A stretch of 64,000 nucleotides of DNA, from the NCBI GenBank assembly GCA_048882505.1, contig JBHLRO010000003.1, forward strand, positions 15,157 to 79,156, given 5' to 3'. Origin of the DNA: Candidatus Thorarchaeota archaeon. Its GTDB lineage: Archaea; Asgardarchaeota; Heimdallarchaeia; Hodarchaeales; Hodarchaeaceae. The translations under genes and the position numbers were made by a program. Of the stretch, positions 24,510 through 35,242 are shown piece after piece; the first letter of the stretch is position 1; each line of letters begins with the position of its first letter. The notes below the pieces were generated by a model, which had not been told where the DNA came from, made no database searches, and saw nothing but the letters and a program-made list of their open reading frames with translations.

Positions 24510-24787
24510 GAATTACCCATTCCCGAAAAATCTCAATCAAATAATTGGAATTTGCCTCGATTATGCCGTAACATTGACCTTAAGTGTAGGATTTGTTGAA
24601 GAATGGAGGAATGACCTAGTAGGATTGAAAGGATAGCAAATCGTCTCCAAATCCATTCTTTTGGGAGGATTATAAGACAGGATGAGCCCAACTTCGAGAA
24701 TCCCTCTTTAGAATCCGAGAAACGATAACCGATATAGTTACCTATATATGCAGTTATAGATCGCACGCCGCATCGAGATGAAATCCC

Positions 24788-25141
24788 TTGCTAGATGATC
24801 TCCTCCTATCAAAATGGCAAACGGAGTATAAAAAAGGGTTTTCTAAACCCCTCATTCTATTCACGCTTGCCAAAATCGGGAGTAGTTATGCGTATCTTCT
24901 TACGAAGAAGATCTTGGAATTAACAAATGGAGAAATCTCAATTGCGGGTTCTAATATATATCCTATGCTTTCCAAACTTGAAGAGGACAGGTTGATTGTC
25001 AGTCAAAAAGACGAGAATGACAGAAAATACTACAAACTGAGTGATGCCGGTAGAGAATTTTTAGAACAGTTGGAACTCTCGATCAAAGAGTTCAATGAGA
25101 TAATGCTTGGATTAACCAAGAAGAATGAAGGAGATCTCTAA
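24788..25141 (+). CDS. PadR-family wHTH transcriptional regulator
   Basis: 117 aa; YAYLLTKKILELTNGEISIAGSNIYPMLSKLEEDRLIVSQK...KYYKLSDAG matches PadR winged helix. Confidence 0.65.
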   Translation: MLDDLLLSKWQTEYKKGFSKPLILFTLAKIGSSYAYLLTKKILELTNGEISIAGSNIYPMLSKLEEDRLIVSQKDENDRKYYKLSDAGREFLEQLELSIKEFNEIMLGLTKKNEGDL

Positions 25142-25817
25142 GAAAATGGCCCAACAGAAGGCATTAGATCCTATTGATGGTTATTTACAGGAGGTAAGTG
25201 CCTTACTTCCCTACTCCGAGGAAAGAAAAGCTTCAATCCTTGAAGAACTAAAAAAGGATGTGGAAGATGCAATGAGAACTGAAAAACGTCCTCCTTCTGT
25301 CGTTTTTGGATCCCCCACCGAAGTAGCTAAGAATCTGAGTATCGCAAATGATTGGGGAACTACTTCCGCGAGATGGGGGACACGGCTAGTTGCTTCATTC
25401 ATCGATTACGCCGCGACTCTAGGAGTCTTCATTCTGTTCGTTATCATTCAATGGATTCTATCGGACTTTCAAATCGATGAAATAAGATGGAATTCAATGC
25501 ACATCCCGTTCGGTTTACTCTTTATAGGTATTCCAATAATAGGTTTGCTTTTGAGTTATTTTATTATTCTCGAAAAAACATATTCCACAACCCTCGGGAA
25601 ACGGATATTGGGTCTCATAGTTGTCGATGAATCGGGAATTAAAATCACTTGGACTCAATCTCTAATTCGTAACTTCACCAAAGTTCCTTTTCTGACATCT
25701 TTTTTGCCAGCAGACATCATATTTGGAATAATATCAGAAAAAACCCGTGGTAGGAAGCAGCGAGTTTTAGATTTTGTCGCAGGAACCAAAGTAATGCAAC
25801 AAAAAGAACAGATATAA
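25125..25817 (+). CDS. RDD-family membrane protein
   Basis: RLVASFIDYAA then 3 hydrophobic helices; overlaps PadR gene end by 17 nt (operon). Confidence 0.5.
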   Translation: MKEISKKMAQQKALDPIDGYLQEVSALLPYSEERKASILEELKKDVEDAMRTEKRPPSVVFGSPTEVAKNLSIANDWGTTSARWGTRLVASFIDYAATLGVFILFVIIQWILSDFQIDEIRWNSMHIPFGLLFIGIPIIGLLLSYFIILEKTYSTTLGKRILGLIVVDESGIKITWTQSLIRNFTKVPFLTSFLPADIIFGIISEKTRGRKQRVLDFVAGTKVMQQKEQI

Positions 25818-25827
25818 GGGTGTTTTC

Positions 25828-28800
25828 ATGGGATTCCGATCGAGTTTACTTATAGCTAAAAGAGCATTAACACGAAGAAAAGCGAAGAATATCAGTGCCA
25901 TCCTTGCCATTACGTTAGGCGTAACGTTGATGGTTGGAATTCAGATAACGACAGATACTTTGGAGAACTCTTTTCTAACTGGATTACTTCTTGATGAAGG
26001 GGAAGTGGACATTCGAGTTGGAAACGGAACGGGGAATTACCTACCTATGGAATTTCAGAATAATATCTCTGAGTTAGTTCCAGACGGAAAGGTAATGCCC
26101 GAGTTGACATCGCGAGGTGCTGTAATGGCGGGTTCTCAGTTTGAAGACTCCGTTCAATTTGCAGGGATTCCCTCCGAATATCCAGAGATCTTTGGGGACT
26201 TTTATGATTGGAACACACAAGAAAAAATGAACATTAGCGATTACTTAACTGATAATACAAGTGTTTTGCTATCAAGCAACTTGGCTGAGGATTTGGATAT
26301 AGAAAAAGATAGTCAACTGCCGATAACCTTGGTTACAGAGTTTAATAACCAGACAATCATTTTACTGCCAAATGGCACGGGTCCCCCCATTCCAACCCCG
26401 ATTTTTACTGTCGAACAGGTTAATCTTTCTGTTGTTGGTCTATATGACTCTAATAGGCCAGGGATTGGAGCGCAATATACTGGTCTTTTAATGTCCCTAA
26501 AAGGCCTTCAAGATTGGCTAAGTCTTCAGGATTTTTCTCGAAATTCAAATTTGGTTAGCTCCTATCTAATATCCTTTCAATCTGATCACTTTAATACCCG
26601 TATTGACCCTGATTTCCTACAGGACCAGCTGGATTTTTTAAATGAAACTCTACCTATCGGTCTTGTTAATGGAGAGACTCAACAGTTATACGCGGCATCA
26701 TCTCCCCGTTTACTCTTTACAGAAATTATCGATCTTGTTTTCAGCTTCATGTCTACCTTTTTAAATGTTTTAGGTCTACTAATAGTACTCACTGGAGTAT
26801 TACTGATAACAAATGTTCAATTAATGAGTGTTGAAGACCGAGAGTTTCAAACTGGCGTATTACGAGCTGTGGGGGAAAAAAGGAGAGGAATTTTCGTTTC
26901 TATGCTTTCTGAAACTCTTTTTCAAGGTATTTTCGGCGGAATAATTGGATTGGTTGGAGGATTGATTTTTGGTCAAGTAGTGGCCCTTTATATTGCCAGT
27001 CTTTTTGAAACAGGACAGTTTAGCGTGCGACCAGTCATAAATCAAACCATTATCGTTTTCTCGGTCCTCATTGGGGTCGCCCTCGGTATTCTTACTGGCC
27101 TTCTCCCAGCCTTACGGGCCTCGCGTGTAAATGTCGTAGAAGCTCTTCGAGGTATTAAAATCCAATTTGAAGAGAAATCTGGTAGAAACTTGGTATTATT
27201 AAGTTTACTGCTGGTAATCGTTGGAGCACTCATTCTTTTAATAAATGGAGTTTTCGATGATAGTTTACAGTATATTTGGGAAATTAAAGGTTGGGATTCA
27301 TTGGACGAATGGAGGAATATTCTCCTTGGATCCGCAATTCTCTTTTCCGGCCTTGGCATCATTCTATCTAGCTTTATTGACCGAATCAAGGCCTTTAATT
27401 TAACAGCACTAGTGATTTGGGCAGCGCCTGTTTTTTTGTTTGTTGTGGCAATGGGAGAAGGTTGGATTGCTGAATTTTCAGGTGGTCCATTTAATATCGA
27501 TGTTTTTATCATTGCGATAATAGAGGTGGTAGTTGGATCAGTATTAATCGTCGGCCTTAATTTGTCTCCATTGATGAGATTCTTACGTAGAGTGCTTATG
27601 CGAATAAGTGGGGTCAAGGGAGTGGCGCAGGTAGCACCTGCTCTTATCTCATCACATAAGACACGTTCAACTCTAACATTCGCAATCTTTGCGGTAGTTC
27701 TCACTCTTAATGTTGTAGTTGCAGCTCTTGTAGCAACCAATCTTTCTAGCTCCATAGGGCAAGCTGAGACGGACTCTCGTGGTATAGATTTATTCGTCTC
27801 ACTTAATAAGCCTGAAGTAGTATTAAACGATACTTCATATACAAAACTACTATTTAATGTTTCCGATAGCATAACTGATGTCATAGGAATGAAAACTTTT
27901 AAAACACGAACGGATTTCACGAAATTTGTAGCCTTGAAAAAGCCTGGGTCAGTTGGGTATAATCCGTCGACCGACCATCTTCCCCTCGAATTTGTAGAAT
28001 TACGGTCAGATCAAATCAGAGGGAACGCCACTAGCGCTGAAGAGGAAAACTGGAGATACGATAGCTTCTTAGGGAGTTTTCCTGATGGTGTAGGTGAACT
28101 ATCTTCCTCCTCTGGAGGTTTCTTCGGTCCTGGCTTCGGTGGTCAGTCTGACGATGTAGAAGCATTGGAACTCTCAAAAAAAGCATTTGATGCTTTCTTT
28201 AATTCTTCTTATACCATGGCTGCATATAATGTATCGTTCTCATTGTCCTCTCTGAGCGATTTTGACATCGAAGACTTCTCATCTTTTTTTGAATCGGATT
28301 TAGAAGATGTAGAAAAATTAGAGGATGAAAATGGATCAATAATTAAAAATCCGATCATTTTTACCGATTCCCTAATCCTCCCACTAGGAATGCAGATTTT
28401 TGTGCCTATGAATATAACGTTTAATCCCTCGACTAATAGAACAGAAATTGTTTATCAACCGTTCACAATTGGTGGGAAGTTTGACCGAGAACGAACCGTG
28501 GGATTTGCTCTTTCAGGTGGTGGCTTTTCTACAAGAGCTATAGGAGATGGAGACGATCAATCAAACTTTTTAGGGAGAATCTATATTCCTGACCGGTTTT
28601 CGAACTATACGAATTTTTTTGGTGAAGCTGGAGGAGCTTCCTACTCTTCAAGAAAACCAAATCAATTTGACACCTTTCTTATTAAAACCTCCTATGCGTT
28701 TGATGATCCAAGGATAGAGGAACTTGCTATCAAAATCGAGAATTTCACAAATACTGAGGATGCCGGATATCGAAAATTGGCTAGTGATGACTTTCTAGTT

Positions 28801-29244
28801 GCAAGGACTACCTCTTTGTATTCGGAGGTAGAAGCCAGCTTGGAATCGACGGTCCAGATGACATCATTCCTAACTATCTATGTTAATTTCGGATTGATTA
28901 TCGGTGCTGTGGGAATGGCTGTGATTAGTGTTAGAAATGTTTCTGAAAGAAAACGAGAAATAGGGATGATGCGCGCAATAGGTTTTCCAAGATTTCAGGT
29001 TATGTTAGCCGCCCTCTTGGAGCTCTTGGTGTTAGGATTTATTGGTCTAATCATTGGTGTTGTGAACGGGCTTTTGATTAACGTGGGGTTTGCTAATATG
29101 ATGGAAGTGCCGGTAGTTATCCCATGGGACACCTTAGCAGCATATCTATCTTTAATTACCCTGATAGGTTTACTTGCAGGAGCTATACCCGGATTCATTG
29201 CTTCCAGAATACCTGCCGCGGAGGCATTGAGATACGTTGGATAA
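25828..29244 (+). CDS. ABC transporter permease, MacB/FtsX-type with two FtsX modules and large extracytoplasmic domains
   Basis: 1138 aa; N-terminal TM, about 270 aa extracytoplasmic region, FtsX-like 3-4 TM block, second large sequon-rich region (about 400 aa), C-terminal FtsX block ending IASRIPAAEALRYVG. Confidence 0.75.
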   Translation: MGFRSSLLIAKRALTRRKAKNISAILAITLGVTLMVGIQITTDTLENSFLTGLLLDEGEVDIRVGNGTGNYLPMEFQNNISELVPDGKVMPELTSRGAVMAGSQFEDSVQFAGIPSEYPEIFGDFYDWNTQEKMNISDYLTDNTSVLLSSNLAEDLDIEKDSQLPITLVTEFNNQTIILLPNGTGPPIPTPIFTVEQVNLSVVGLYDSNRPGIGAQYTGLLMSLKGLQDWLSLQDFSRNSNLVSSYLISFQSDHFNTRIDPDFLQDQLDFLNETLPIGLVNGETQQLYAASSPRLLFTEIIDLVFSFMSTFLNVLGLLIVLTGVLLITNVQLMSVEDREFQTGVLRAVGEKRRGIFVSMLSETLFQGIFGGIIGLVGGLIFGQVVALYIASLFETGQFSVRPVINQTIIVFSVLIGVALGILTGLLPALRASRVNVVEALRGIKIQFEEKSGRNLVLLSLLLVIVGALILLINGVFDDSLQYIWEIKGWDSLDEWRNILLGSAILFSGLGIILSSFIDRIKAFNLTALVIWAAPVFLFVVAMGEGWIAEFSGGPFNIDVFIIAIIEVVVGSVLIVGLNLSPLMRFLRRVLMRISGVKGVAQVAPALISSHKTRSTLTFAIFAVVLTLNVVVAALVATNLSSSIGQAETDSRGIDLFVSLNKPEVVLNDTSYTKLLFNVSDSITDVIGMKTFKTRTDFTKFVALKKPGSVGYNPSTDHLPLEFVELRSDQIRGNATSAEEENWRYDSFLGSFPDGVGELSSSSGGFFGPGFGGQSDDVEALELSKKAFDAFFNSSYTMAAYNVSFSLSSLSDFDIEDFSSFFESDLEDVEKLEDENGSIIKNPIIFTDSLILPLGMQIFVPMNITFNPSTNRTEIVYQPFTIGGKFDRERTVGFALSGGGFSTRAIGDGDDQSNFLGRIYIPDRFSNYTNFFGEAGGASYSSRKPNQFDTFLIKTSYAFDDPRIEELAIKIENFTNTEDAGYRKLASDDFLVARTTSLYSEVEASLESTVQMTSFLTIYVNFGLIIGAVGMAVISVRNVSERKREIGMMRAIGFPRFQVMLAALLELLVLGFIGLIIGVVNGLLINVGFANMMEVPVVIPWDTLAAYLSLITLIGLLAGAIPGFIASRIPAAEALRYVG

Positions 29245-30001
29245 TGGAGGCAAAACAATGATAGAAACAATTGTGGAAGATCCAGATTTTGTTGAGACAG
29301 AACCAATCCTCTATATCACAGATTTGCATAAACGTTATAATGAGGGAAAATCGAATGAAGTGCATGCTCTCCGTGGATTAGATCTAGAGGTAAAAAAGGG
29401 TGATATGATGGCGATAATGGGCCCTTCTGGATGCGGAAAAACGACCCTACTTAACATGATCGGGCATTTGGATGTCAGCTCAGGTGGGACCATTGTAATC
29501 AGTGGTATTGATACTGGGGAGCTTTCCGATCGTGAGATGACTGCATTTCGAAGAGATAACATCGGTTTCATATTTCAGCTCTTCAATTTATTCCCGTTCT
29601 TAACTGCGGTAGAGAATGTAGAAACTCCCTTATTATTAAAAGGCCTTAAATCAGGAGTCGCACGGGAACAGGCCAAAATGCTCCTGAGAGACTTAGGAAT
29701 GGGGGACAGACTATATCATTATCCCTTAGAGCTTTCAGGTGGACAACAACAACGAGTTGCAATCGCGCGTGCTTTGATTAATCAACCTGCAATTATTCTC
29801 GGTGACGAACCGACAGGAGATCTAGATAGTACCACAAGTGCAGTGATAATGGAACTTTTTCGCAGAATAAATATGATGAATAAACAGACATTTGTCCTGG
29901 TTACGCACAATCGGTGGATTGCTGAAAAATGTGATTACATTGTCCATATGACCGATGGGGTGATCTCCAACGTTGAATATGGACCTTTTGAGGAGGCCTA
30001 G
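29237..30001 (+). CDS. ABC transporter ATP-binding protein (MacB/LolD-type)
   Basis: Walker A GPSGCGKTT, Q-loop, signature LSGGQQQRVAIARAL, Walker B ILGDEPTGDLD, H-loop LVTHN; start overlaps permease stop by 8 nt. Confidence 0.9.
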   Translation: MDNGGKTMIETIVEDPDFVETEPILYITDLHKRYNEGKSNEVHALRGLDLEVKKGDMMAIMGPSGCGKTTLLNMIGHLDVSSGGTIVISGIDTGELSDREMTAFRRDNIGFIFQLFNLFPFLTAVENVETPLLLKGLKSGVAREQAKMLLRDLGMGDRLYHYPLELSGGQQQRVAIARALINQPAIILGDEPTGDLDSTTSAVIMELFRRINMMNKQTFVLVTHNRWIAEKCDYIVHMTDGVISNVEYGPFEEA

Positions 30002-30003
30002 CC

Positions 30004-32787
30004 ATGGTAAGAGTATACACTGCAGCCTTGATAGATAAACCTTTACGTGCCATTAATAAGAATTTACAGAAAAAGATGACTTCGGATTTGAGGAAATCTC
30101 TTAAGGTTCGGCGTGATGCAGTATCTAGTCAGGAGTTGAACACATTCCTCCTAGTTTCAGGCAAAAACGGAAAACGCGGATTCACCCCGGAAATGATAGA
30201 TAGGGTTGAAAAAGGAGCCATTCAGAAAAGACTAAAGCAATATTACAATAGAAATGAGTCACGATTTAGGAACTACATGAAAAACAATCAAGAGTTATAT
30301 GAAACCTCCCAGGTGGTAAAAGAATTCATCCGAGAGATTGATTCATCTCTTCCGAAAAAGTTCGACCAACAATTAAAGAAAATTAACACAGAATTACCGG
30401 AAATTTTCTGCCAGATTAGTATGAAGAGTTTTATTACTTTATGGGAGATTGAAGAAAGGCAGGAATATCGTTTTAACTTGTCCGGATTTGATTTTCCCAT
30501 ATTTGCCGGAACAACCAATGGAACCCCATTTAATGTAGGAAGTTTAGTAGATAAGCTTCTCATTGTAAATTTCTTTGAAACTTTCTTAAAATCAACCCTC
30601 CAGCGACTCGATGATATGAATCAGGTACTGGAACGTCTCGAATACGAACTTTCCAAGCCACACTATCAAATTAAGAACGAAAAACTACACGCCAAATTCT
30701 CTCTCTTTCTACGAATTCTGGTTGCAAAACTAAGCGCCTTACAGGAGTTAGAAAACTCGATCTTTCGGATCTTTAGTTTGTTTGATGTTCCATATATGAT
30801 CCTTACTCAATATCGTTTTAAAAGCGATTTTTTGGATTTAAATACAGAGATCGCCAGAATCTGCGAGGATATTAGTGTAGGTAAAGATAAACTCAACGAG
30901 GTAGGAAGAAAAATTGATAATTGCCAATTATCTCTTCGAGATTATCTTGATGAAAGTAGAAATGGAGTTATAAAGACTGATTCGACCCAATTATTCAAAG
31001 ATTCTCTGAAATCATTAGCAGAATTAAGTATTGATTTGTTTATAGAATCTGAAATGTTAAAACTTTGGTCGGATTATTTTGGATCAGATATTCCTTATTT
31101 TAGTTTTAATGTCCAATTAGATGAGGAAACTGAAAGCGAGGAGGATATCCACATCGATGATGATGTTATTTTGGCTGTGAGAGGGCTCTATAAGAACTAT
31201 AACCTTGGTCGTACCACCGTTTATGCAGTACGGGGAGTTAATCTCGATATTAAGGCAGGTGAATTTGTTGCAATAGTCGGCAGTTCCGGCGCAGGTAAGA
31301 CAACACTATTAAACTGTATGGCCAGTTTAGATACTCCGGATCATGGTGTCGTTTATTTTCGGGGGAGAAATCTTCACAAACTGAAAGATTCAGAGAAAGC
31401 AGACGTCCGACTTCGCGAAATGGGTTTCATTTTTCAGAGCTACGCCTTACTACCTCATTTCGACACTCGCGAAAATGTAACCCTCCCAGCAAATCTGGCA
31501 GGCGGATTAAGTAAAGGTATAAGAACCCGAATTGAGAATCTTTTGGTGGGTGTTGGAATAAGTGAACAGGCGAAACAATATCCTGCTCAGTTGAGCGGAG
31601 GTCAGATGCAACGGGTGGCAATTGCACGAGCTCTTACAAATCAACCGGCTGTCATATTTGCTGATGAACCCACAGGTGATCTGGATTCGACCACTGGTGT
31701 TCAAGTGATGGAATTGCTAAAGAAATTCCATGAGGAAACAAATACGACCATTGTAATCATAACACATGAGGAGAGTATTGCTAATTACGCTGAAAGGCGA
31801 ATTATGATGGAAGATGGAGTAATTACGCAGCGAAAAAGGCCCGTTGATCAAGCGGGACAGCCTATCCTGATGGAAAAGCCAATGATGCCGAAAGTTGAAA
31901 GGGAACTACCTCCAATATGGGAGGAAAGAGTAAACGAAATCGAAGGAAGGTTAGAGACCTTCGAGAAGAAAAACATTGAACTATTAGGCAAGGTAGTAAA
32001 AGAAGTACAAAGACAGTTGGACGAAATAAGGGGTAACATAGAAGTTCTTGGGATTGAGACCAACAAAAAATCGCTGGATCTGAGTACAAGATTTGAACAA
32101 CTAAATACTAATGCTAGCAATTGGTCATTTGCAATCAATGAACAGATGGAATCATTTCGTGCTCAATATGTTAAAGTGCTGGAAGAGCTCAGGCAATCTT
32201 CAATCAGATCGGCCGAAAAGGAAAGAATTCTTTCGCAAAAGTATACAGAACTCGTGGAACAATTAAAAGAAAAAGACCAGATAGCGGTTGAAAAAGGCAA
32301 TCTAAATCAAGTAAGGTTCAGTGCATTACAAAAGGAGATCGAAAGGAAGGAATCAGACTTAGGAATTTATAAGGATAGATTGGAGGAGCTGGAATCTGAA
32401 ATAAAGGTAAAACAGCAGCATATTGATGAATCTACTGAAATTAAAATGAAAACAGAAAACCTAGTAAATAGCTACAGAAAATTAAAGGAAGCTTATGATA
32501 ATAAGAGTCGGGAAGTGACTCATTTACAGGCTCAATTAGCATCCATGACTGAAGATACGAAGAAGATCGTTAAAAGTACCAGGGCTATAAAGGCATTCCT
32601 CGATGAGAGTGATTCAGGTCGAATCCTGTACCAACTTCTTAATTCTGAGCGTTTAAATCTAGATGAACTTGCGGTTCGGACTGGAATCGCAACATATACC
32701 GTTTACCAAATAGTTCAACACCTTCGAGATATTGGTGTAGTTGAGTTCGATAATTCCACACGCGTAGTTACATTAGTAAGCAAGTAA
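30004..32787 (+). CDS. ABC-type ATPase with about 390-aa N-terminal domain of unknown function and C-terminal coiled-coil plus wHTH-like tail
   Basis: Central Walker A GSSGAGKTT, signature LSGGQMQRVAIARAL, Walker B IFADEPTGDLD, H-loop ITHEE; C-terminal about 300 aa heptad-rich (E/K/L) ending in TGIATYTVYQIVQHLRDIGVVEF; starts 3 nt after upstream ATPase gene. Confidence 0.7.
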   Translation: MVRVYTAALIDKPLRAINKNLQKKMTSDLRKSLKVRRDAVSSQELNTFLLVSGKNGKRGFTPEMIDRVEKGAIQKRLKQYYNRNESRFRNYMKNNQELYETSQVVKEFIREIDSSLPKKFDQQLKKINTELPEIFCQISMKSFITLWEIEERQEYRFNLSGFDFPIFAGTTNGTPFNVGSLVDKLLIVNFFETFLKSTLQRLDDMNQVLERLEYELSKPHYQIKNEKLHAKFSLFLRILVAKLSALQELENSIFRIFSLFDVPYMILTQYRFKSDFLDLNTEIARICEDISVGKDKLNEVGRKIDNCQLSLRDYLDESRNGVIKTDSTQLFKDSLKSLAELSIDLFIESEMLKLWSDYFGSDIPYFSFNVQLDEETESEEDIHIDDDVILAVRGLYKNYNLGRTTVYAVRGVNLDIKAGEFVAIVGSSGAGKTTLLNCMASLDTPDHGVVYFRGRNLHKLKDSEKADVRLREMGFIFQSYALLPHFDTRENVTLPANLAGGLSKGIRTRIENLLVGVGISEQAKQYPAQLSGGQMQRVAIARALTNQPAVIFADEPTGDLDSTTGVQVMELLKKFHEETNTTIVIITHEESIANYAERRIMMEDGVITQRKRPVDQAGQPILMEKPMMPKVERELPPIWEERVNEIEGRLETFEKKNIELLGKVVKEVQRQLDEIRGNIEVLGIETNKKSLDLSTRFEQLNTNASNWSFAINEQMESFRAQYVKVLEELRQSSIRSAEKERILSQKYTELVEQLKEKDQIAVEKGNLNQVRFSALQKEIERKESDLGIYKDRLEELESEIKVKQQHIDESTEIKMKTENLVNSYRKLKEAYDNKSREVTHLQAQLASMTEDTKKIVKSTRAIKAFLDESDSGRILYQLLNSERLNLDELAVRTGIATYTVYQIVQHLRDIGVVEFDNSTRVVTLVSK

Positions 32788-34570: not shown

Positions 34571-35242
34571 TCAGAAGAATTCAGATAATGTTGTTTTAGG
34601 GTTCTTCTTTTTTGCGGGTTTTATTGTGGTCGGCCCATTATCCCCCTTGCTCGGCAGCGTATCAACAATCCAACTATTCATTTCTCCCTCATACGGTTTA
34701 AGGATCGCTAATAACTGCTCTTGAGTTTTCTCATAATTAAGCCAAAAATCGACTTGTTTTTTATTGAAAATGACTGGCATCCTATGAAAAACCTTTTCAA
34801 CAACGGGATGAGGATCAGTTGTTAAAACTGCACATTTATACCTCATCCTGCTCTCCTCTTCATCGAAATAAGAATTATAAATCCCAGCAATTCCGAATAA
34901 AGGCTCGTTTTTTAACGAAAAGTAGTATGGGATTCTTTCTTTACCGACGCGTTCCCATTCAAAAAAACCGTTTGCAAGAATAACACAACGTTTTTCCACA
35001 AAGGCTTTCCTGAAAAGCTTTTTTTCATGAACCGTTTCACTTCGAGCTTTATATGATTGAAAACCTTTTGTATAACCCCAATACATTCGAACTAGTTTGT
35101 AACCTTCCTCATTTACAATTGCAGTTGCTCTGTTTGTTGGTTTAAGATTGTAATAAGGAAAAACCTCAAGATTCCCTGGAGAAACGCCAAATGTAGACTC
35201 AATTTCATCTTTTGACGAAAAAAAGGCGAATCTTGAAGGCAT
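34571..35242 (-). CDS. SRAP (SOS-response associated peptidase, YedK/HMCES-like) homolog with Pro at position 2
   Basis: MPSRFA...YNLKP...WGY...KARSET...ILANGFFEWE...PYYF...HHRMPVIF parallels YedK MCGRFA...YNVAP...WGY...NARVET...FADGWFEWK...HDRRPLVL; start codon ATG confirmed, codon 2 is CCT (Pro), in-frame stop 6 codons upstream. Confidence 0.65.
   Translation of the reverse strand: MPSRFAFFSSKDEIESTFGVSPGNLEVFPYYNLKPTNRATAIVNEEGYKLVRMYWGYTKGFQSYKARSETVHEKKLFRKAFVEKRCVILANGFFEWERVGKERIPYYFSLKNEPLFGIAGIYNSYFDEEESRMRYKCAVLTTDPHPVVEKVFHRMPVIFNKKQVDFWLNYEKTQEQLLAILKPYEGEMNSWIVDTLPSKGDNGPTTIKPAKKKNPKTTLSEFF

Follow-up and report, generated by a model that had tools for sequence, protein, structure and literature searches.

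The window analysed here, a 64,000-nucleotide (nt) stretch of contig JBHLRO010000003.1 from Candidatus Thorarchaeota archaeon, harbours at positions 24788-32787 five co-directional open reading frames (ORFs) on the plus strand that constitute one real operon of this Asgard archaeon; the explanation that fits it best overall, held here with fair but by no means full confidence, is that it encodes a PadR-controlled ATP-binding cassette (ABC) machine of type VII, i.e. of the MacB/FtsX class. Three features of the operon are unusual: the presence of two distinct, paired ATPases (nucleotide-binding domain proteins, termed NBD1 and NBD2), an orphan N-terminal domain (N-domain) of NBD2, and a lineage-specific fusion of NBD2 to a coiled-coil/winged helix-turn-helix (wHTH) protein. 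The coordinates of all five genes were reproduced exactly in the ORF list (Table 1), and the first and second genes overlap by 17 nt and the third and fourth by 8 nt, while 10 nt lie between the second and third and 2 nt between the fourth and fifth; ORFs, junctions and Pfam matches agree with the initial annotation of this DNA, in which a single operon with the order PadR, RDD, double-FtsX permease, ABC, ABC had been proposed.

The same annotation had described the fifth protein (927 residues) as a motif-less N-domain followed by a complete ABC core and a helical tail with a wHTH-like end, a composition that was confirmed by the Pfam and NCBIfam searches and by AlphaFold2 modelling. No description of the system was found in the literature (which is not proof of absence); the core of the protein is not unique to this window. 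Database searches retrieved about ten full-length relatives (904-941 residues, 65-87% identical) and hundreds of proteins of ~604-610 residues that match the first two thirds alone (58-70% identical). Since many relatives cover the first two thirds only, the N-domain and the MacB/LolD-type ATPase together correspond to a protein of ~607 residues which, as judged from sequence, is a conserved archaeal family of Asgard lineages and Bathyarchaeia, whereas the tail is an add-on. In the genome scan, the N-domain was present in 39 species representatives, comprising Heimdall/Hod/"Promethearchaeota" metagenome-assembled genomes (MAGs) and about 25 Bathyarchaeia; the trio of permease, NBD1 and NBD2 genes is also carried by the genome of Ca. 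Bathyarchaeum tardum (L029). At NCBI, an Asgard MAG contains the exact 927-residue protein under the name "ATP-binding cassette domain-containing protein".

The gene neighbourhood is conserved across archaeal genomes: according to tblastn, permease and NBD1 genes are located immediately upstream of the NBD2 gene in all 39 genome loci with enough flanking sequence, and five of five homologue contigs showed the succession PadR, (RDD), double-FtsX permease of ~1100-1140 residues, NBD of ~253 residues and N-domain NBD. Even the two most divergent members examined (25-32% N-domain identity) have retained the permease-NBD1-NBD2 trio. As this order recurs in every related locus with enough flank, the arrangement is not due to chance. 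Between Asgard and Bathyarchaeia proteins, the identity amounts to ~80% for NBD1, ~77% for NBD2, ~55% for the permease and ~50% for the N-domain. The values of the two ATPases (fetched loci L020-L045 compared with the window) are unusually high for two archaeal phyla, which could reflect strong constraint or horizontal transfer among sediment archaea.

The permease gene product yielded two Pfam FtsX matches (6e-31, 107 bits) and a MacB_PCD match of 28 bits (cut-off 27). Hydropathy analysis predicted a single chain with 12 transmembrane (TM) segments in a 4+4+4 arrangement; because the number of linker helices is even, both large loops, designated extracytoplasmic domains ECD1 and ECD2, are placed outside the cell. 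The density of N-X-S/T sequons is about three times higher in both ECDs (29-30 per 1000) than elsewhere in the permease (~10 per 1000). Searched singly, neither ECD gave a Pfam or NCBIfam match, while the nearest PDB sequences to the permease were MacB, the Streptococcus pneumoniae permease 5xu1, YtrF and LolC. Pfam, hydropathy and PDB sequence matches thus bear out the earlier description of a MacB/Bce-like permease with two large extracytoplasmic domains. The structural features of type VII systems (MacB, LolCDE, FtsEX, YbbAP, HrtBA) are present, namely FtsX modules of four TM helices each, in which TM1 and TM2 flank a large extracytoplasmic domain, and NBDs of the MacB/LolD/FtsE clade; on these membership features the operon is classified as a type VII ABC mechanotransmitter, mechanotransmission itself being a prediction. 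It differs from the known representatives in that one chain of 1138 residues combines two modules, separated by four additional TM helices and bearing two different ECDs, that two distinct NBD genes take the place of one, that one of these NBDs carries an orphan N-domain of 366 residues, and that the host is an archaeon.

Both NBDs gave ABC_tran matches in Pfam (1.4e-32 for NBD1, 7.1e-32 for NBD2). Their best NCBIfam matches were LolD, MacB, YbbA, DevA and FtsE, but every equivalog cut-off was missed (NBD1 and NBD2, respectively: LolD, 224 and 216 bits versus 307.75; MacB, 198 and 208 versus 966; FtsE, 183 and 187 versus 264.85). In the Foldseek comparison, the NBD2 core retrieved MacB, YbbA, BceA, LolD and MJ0796 at 1e-20 to 1e-18, and the full-length model of the 927-residue protein gave NBD matches only. 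Walker A, Q-loop, signature, Walker B with its glutamate, and H-loop are kept by both NBDs in ~45 loci. A permease that is a single-chain pseudo-dimer of two FtsX modules needs two ATPase subunits; from the presence of two distinct, catalytically intact NBD genes we infer a heterodimeric NBD1-NBD2 motor. In the initial annotation, the second ATPase with its putative DNA-binding tail had been taken as a hint at mechanotransmission or signalling rather than plain transport; signalling does not follow from a second ATPase alone, since a fused two-module permease needs two NBDs anyway.

Alternatively, NBD1 alone might power the permease as a homodimer, and the N-domain ATPase would be a regulator or switch of ABC type in its own right, soluble or peripheral, forming a homodimer of its own that the coiled coil possibly dimerises further; it would use ATP to control a cytoplasmic process, for example DNA binding by the wHTH. 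The BceA homodimer of BceAB-type fused permeases provides a precedent, and both the flexible acidic linker between N-domain and NBD and the size of N-domain and tail, which would then be large cytoplasmic additions unrelated to transport, conform to such a separation. However, in the loci examined the NBD2 gene was never found apart from the permease-NBD1 pair, the junction of the two ATPase genes (2 nt or overlapping) suggests stoichiometric co-production, NBD2 belongs to the same MacB/LolD transporter clade as NBD1 (43% identity between the two), and most family members possess neither tail nor wHTH. A motor of NBD1 alone is hence regarded as rather unlikely, and the heterodimeric arrangement is preferred.

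Among the characterised systems, BceAB of Firmicutes also combines a single-chain two-module FtsX permease with a pair of cytoplasmic NBDs, and has as its partner a dedicated sensor/regulator, which may detect the activity of the transporter. BceB has 10 TM helices and one ECD (between TM7 and TM8), is energised by a BceA homodimer and signals via the BceRS histidine kinase system. In the system described here, by contrast, the permease has 12 predicted TM segments and two ECDs, the NBDs differ from each other, and the regulator is PadR with or without an HAAS-RDD protein; neither a histidine kinase nor a response regulator was conserved nearby in the homologue contigs and the neighbour clustering, and PadR occupies that position. 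In functional terms, the system might nevertheless serve Bce-like detoxification or sensing of antimicrobial peptides or membrane-active compounds, with PadR/HAAS-RDD replacing BceRS and sensing transporter activity. Apart from the fused permease and the MacB/BceA-like NBDs, this possibility draws on some JGI annotations, in which homologues are labelled 'antimicrobial peptide transport system', on the proposal of the PadR-HAAS dyad as a two-component replacement in envelope-stress contexts, and on known fusions of HAAS to FtsX/MacB-PCD proteins (PMC11237479). Besides the deviating numbers of TM segments and ECDs and the missing kinase, the single-copy-looking core in two archaeal phyla with its highly similar NBD1 is more reminiscent of a housekeeping envelope function, and the RDD protein is absent in Bathyarchaeia; a Bce-like role is therefore conceivable but doubtful.

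The ADOP systems of Acidobacteria (TIGR03434, TIGR03433) resemble the operon in the association of a duplicated FtsX permease with a PadR-family regulator. Indeed, the ADOP models were the top NCBIfam matches of the permease and PadR genes, though far under their cut-offs (75 bits versus 622.3 for the permease model TIGR03434, 38 versus 102 bits for the PadR gene). ADOP permeases are described in TIGRFAMs as 'orphans' without adjacent ATPases; in the operon studied here, two ATPases always adjoin the permease.

The N-domain of NBD2 was modelled with confidence from 36 sequences (predicted local distance difference test score (pLDDT) 91.5, predicted template modelling score (pTM) 0.88). According to the model, it consists of an alpha/beta core (strands in the regions 2-9, 40-55 and 144-170) together with long helices (72-140, 178-258 and 279-360). 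The invariant motif LKxWxDxFxxDxPxF closes the domain, and after it comes a disordered acidic linker (pLDDT below 50 at residues 364-380 of the full-length model and 374-385 of the N-domain model) whose columns are variable in the alignment of homologues. Residues 1-385 of the protein gave no match in Pfam or NCBIfam; the N-domain gave none among the PDB sequences and, in Foldseek, none at E<=1e-3. A phmmer search over 1.84 billion representative proteins returned 49 clusters and the profile search 295 proteins; the best 120 of these 295 were all N-domain-plus-NBD proteins or fragments, and no other architecture was found among them. The invariant residues include the basic K12, R156, R237, K242, R255 and R312, so that the N-domain is a candidate for binding an anionic ligand or forming an interface. 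As the domain persists where RDD, PadR or tail is absent, its role appears to be tied to the trio and not to those partners. In an Odinarchaeota homologue (P0044, L004:10001-11992), an insertion of ~55 residues at N-domain residues ~305-385 repeats the preceding helix (EVSAKIHHCQLCLRDYLDKQ versus EISAKIHSSQVRLQDYLEKQ), i.e. a tandem duplication within the helical bundle of the domain.

Extra cytoplasmic domains on an NBD are also known as the regulatory domains of MalK and MetN, and in MalK-MalT control a transporter ATPase is physically linked to a transcription-factor-like module. The additional domains of MalK and MetN are small units of known fold at the C-terminus, and MalT is a protein separate from the ATPase; in NBD2, by contrast, the extra domain is N-terminal, comprises 366 residues and has no fold match, and the wHTH is covalently attached via a helical region of ~230 residues.

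In the full-length AlphaFold2 model, this helical region of the tail comprises the helices 637-681, 693-804 and 811-868, with low pLDDT values at 676-747 and values of 78-88 at 770-850. Residues 637-868 contain a single proline in 232 residues and are 37% charged. A home-made heptad score did not separate the tail from other helical parts of the protein; the designation as coiled coil is thus based on the modelled helices, the composition and weak matches to SMC/Rad50 coiled coils in this segment. The C-terminal wHTH is predicted with the topology H870-881, E883-885, H886-893, H897-909, E913-916, E921-924 (pLDDT ~85). Over its entire length (~290 residues), the tail aligns end to end with free-standing proteins of 315-362 residues (40-54% identity), with which it shares an invariant NWxFxxNEQ...FR..YV block and a DELxxxTGIATxxV helix-turn-helix; one such stand-alone homologue reached 26.3 bits for MarR_2 (cut-off 27). 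In other Heimdall/Hodarchaeales genomes, their genes lie elsewhere in the genome, and in all four loci examined a Macro-domain gene follows directly downstream. The coiled-coil/wHTH-Macro pair is itself conserved and possibly linked to ADP-ribose signalling.

The fused tails formed one group in the neighbour-joining tree, beside one stand-alone subgroup, a pattern compatible with one fusion event. Of the loci fetched, only those of one Heimdall/Hodarchaeales subclade carry the fusion (L001, L007-L010 and the window). The homology to a separately encoded gene identifies the tail, on sequence grounds, as a lineage-specific gene fusion in which a normally free-standing protein was joined to NBD2, and the fusion would imply that the free-standing protein works with this transporter. 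The treatment of the 927-residue protein as one unit in the initial annotation is upheld for the continuous reading frame, but the three parts do not all descend from one gene, the tail being a gene of its own in other genomes. That separate occurrence could also have pointed to an artefact, i.e. two or three genes joined by frameshift or misassembly. Such an origin is extremely improbable and was rejected: the fused frame is continuous in at least ten independent database proteins (65-87% identity) from several assemblies and sources, the identical protein is present on an independently assembled Logan contig, and, as stated, the fused tails form a group of their own.

The weak SMC_N, SMC and Rad50 matches, together with generic ABC matches to defence models, raised the further question of an SMC/Rad50-like or ABC-F-like soluble ATPase or an anti-phage defence ATPase. 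This affiliation is highly unlikely, given that the gene shares an operon with a membrane permease and that the chromosomal context is ordinary, and in agreement with the initial annotation each candidate was dismissed. In SMC/Rad50 proteins, a long antiparallel coiled coil splits the ABC head; here the NBD runs uninterrupted, and the helical region follows it towards the C-terminus; SMC_N scored 15.8 bits (cut-off 40), and the NCBIfam SMC/Rad50 models 18-23 bits, in the coiled-coil regions, against cut-offs above 560. The ABC_tran match comprises a single domain per chain (residues 410-557) instead of the two tandem NBDs of ABC-F proteins, and PADLOC returned only generic ABC/P-loop and FtsX/RDD-segment matches.

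At the regulatory end of the operon, the first gene encodes a winged-helix regulator of the PadR family (Pfam PadR 5.9e-15, 55.5 bits versus a cut-off of 27), and the second a membrane protein with a Pfam RDD match (5.2e-16), at least two hydrophobic TM segments and an N-terminal HAAS-like helical domain (residues ~20-69). According to the neighbour clustering, PadR is located directly upstream of the trio in 32 loci: a short PadR together with RDD in 11 Asgard loci, a long PadR (~188 residues) without RDD in 21 Bathyarchaeia/Odin loci. The PadR gene adjoins the gene of the HAAS-like protein in 11 loci, and the RDD protein is a putative membrane sensor partner of PadR. For the PadR-HAAS dyad, a role as a membrane-linked substitute for two-component systems has been proposed (PMC11237479); the Asgard versions correspond to it in the succession of a stand-alone PadR wHTH gene and a gene whose membrane-protein product carries a HAAS-like three-helix domain in its N-terminal part, but deviate in that HAAS remains below its cut-off and is fused to RDD, and the dyad is restricted to these versions, Bathyarchaeia and Odin having the long PadR and no RDD. 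Upstream of the PadR gene, ending 27 nt before its start, lies an element that contains a TATA-like box and palindromes that overlap each other (ATATAG-N4-CTATAT and CTATA-N9-TATAG). This block was nearly invariant in the five Asgard upstream regions aligned, while the remaining intergenic DNA was not conserved; it probably represents the promoter and a putative PadR operator.

Several observations weigh against the proposed PadR-controlled type VII machine or parts of it. No conserved accessory gene points to a substrate, only PadR and RDD being conserved nearby in the neighbour clustering. PadR is absent beside the two most divergent trios, and HAAS in the second gene scored only 19.8-22.4 bits (Pfam cut-off 27), albeit at the expected N-terminal position. 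The full-length model of NBD2 has a pTM of 0.47 with low confidence in part of the tail. The tail wHTH is sub-threshold (TrmB 21.3-23 bits versus 25.6, HTH_24 17-19 versus 21.9; MarR_2 and HVO_A0114 likewise below their cut-offs), and as the segment is not basic (about 6 K/R versus 7 D/E), DNA binding is not assured.

Table 1. Positions of the operon, its parts and associated features (window coordinates unless a fetched locus, L, is given).
Feature	Position	Strand	Remarks
Conserved upstream element	24722..24761	.	ACGATAACCGATATAGTTACCTATATATGCAGTTATAGAT; ~40 bp; likely promoter and putative PadR operator
PadR gene	24788..25141	+	117 residues, TTG start
RDD membrane protein gene	25125..25817	+	230 residues
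Double-FtsX permease gene	25828..29244	+	1138 residues
ECD1	25948-26754	+	permease residues ~41-309, extracellular
ECD2	27736-28875	+	permease residues ~637-1016, extracellular
NBD1 (plain ABC ATPase) gene	29237..30001	+	254 residues
NBD2 (N-domain ATPase and tail) gene	30004..32787	+	927 residues
N-domain of NBD2	30004..31101	+	residues 1-366; orphan fold
Acidic low-confidence linker, N-domain to NBD	31102..31164	+	residues 367-387
NBD2 ATPase core	31165..31839	+	residues ~388-612; MacB/LolD type
Long helical, coiled-coil-like segment	31912..32607	+	residues ~637-868
C-terminal wHTH and stop codon	32611..32787	+	residues 870-927
Free-standing tail homologue and Macro gene	L046:10001-11591, L047:10001-11517, L048:10001-11519, L051:5009-6497		Heimdall/Hodarchaeales
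GT2 pair (examples)	L005:11839-14051, L029:9857-12052		

The genes surrounding the operon are ordinary chromosomal metabolism genes, and an Rfam scan of the window gave no match. A gene for an SOS-response-associated peptidase (SRAP; 34571-35242, minus strand; Pfam 6.7e-46) is located 1.8 kb downstream and apparently unrelated to the operon; two antisense ORFs within the permease gene (27042-27920, 292 residues; 28995-29306, 103 residues; both minus strand) are most likely spurious. According to the neighbour clustering, nothing was conserved beyond trio, PadR and RDD. Directly downstream of the trio, nine loci of related Bathyarchaeia carry a divergent GT2 glycosyltransferase gene pair; as the pair is not conserved in Asgard archaea, it probably reflects synteny by descent, but may hint at a glycan-related envelope role. 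In some genomes, a paralogous system adjoins the operon (L001:1-4288, minus strand; L004:12396-17506), in which a double-FtsX permease of 920-981 residues is followed by an ABC ATPase (312-347 residues) with a C-terminal extension of ~100 residues and, in L001, by a second, plain ABC gene (245 residues). A fused permease with a pair of ATPase genes may be a design that recurs in archaea.

In the mechanism proposed for the type VII machine, NBD1 and NBD2 would be positioned one beneath each half of the pseudo-dimeric permease, and ATP binding and hydrolysis, transmitted across the membrane as in MacB, LolCDE, FtsEX and BceAB, would move the ECDs; this movement might expel or extract some envelope or membrane-associated substrate or act on a surface partner. 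The N-domain would render the motor asymmetric and might serve in the cytoplasm for regulation or docking. PadR, in the Asgard lineages jointly with the HAAS-RDD protein, would autoregulate the operon via the palindromic element over the TATA-like box. In the subclade of the window, one ancestral fusion would have tethered the coiled-coil/wHTH protein to NBD2; its free-standing counterparts might function, e.g., as a membrane-tethered or transporter-gated DNA-binding factor. A far-reaching version, in which the trio constitutes a distinct archaeal type VII class with an obligately heterodimeric motor and a new fold that couples the cell surface to cytoplasmic signalling, and in which the conserved Heimdall/Hodarchaeales coiled-coil/wHTH protein, normally paired with a Macro-domain gene, is the DNA effector of the transporter, appears improbable at present; if true, signals would pass from the transporter to the chromosome by a kinase-free route.

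What is understood of type VII ABC systems comes almost wholly from bacteria; to our knowledge, no comparable system has been characterised in archaea, and the presence of two unlike ATPase subunits in a type VII system would be, as far as we know, unusual. The family described here is strongly conserved in two major groups of sediment archaea, among them the group to which the closest known relatives of eukaryotes belong, and adds with its N-domain a large, confidently folded domain that has no Pfam or PDB match. The fusion provides a candidate functional link between the transporter and an otherwise anonymous coiled-coil/winged-helix family: should this link not hold, the operon would encode an ordinary though unannotated envelope transporter; should it be true, it would represent another way of wiring ABC machines to regulation.

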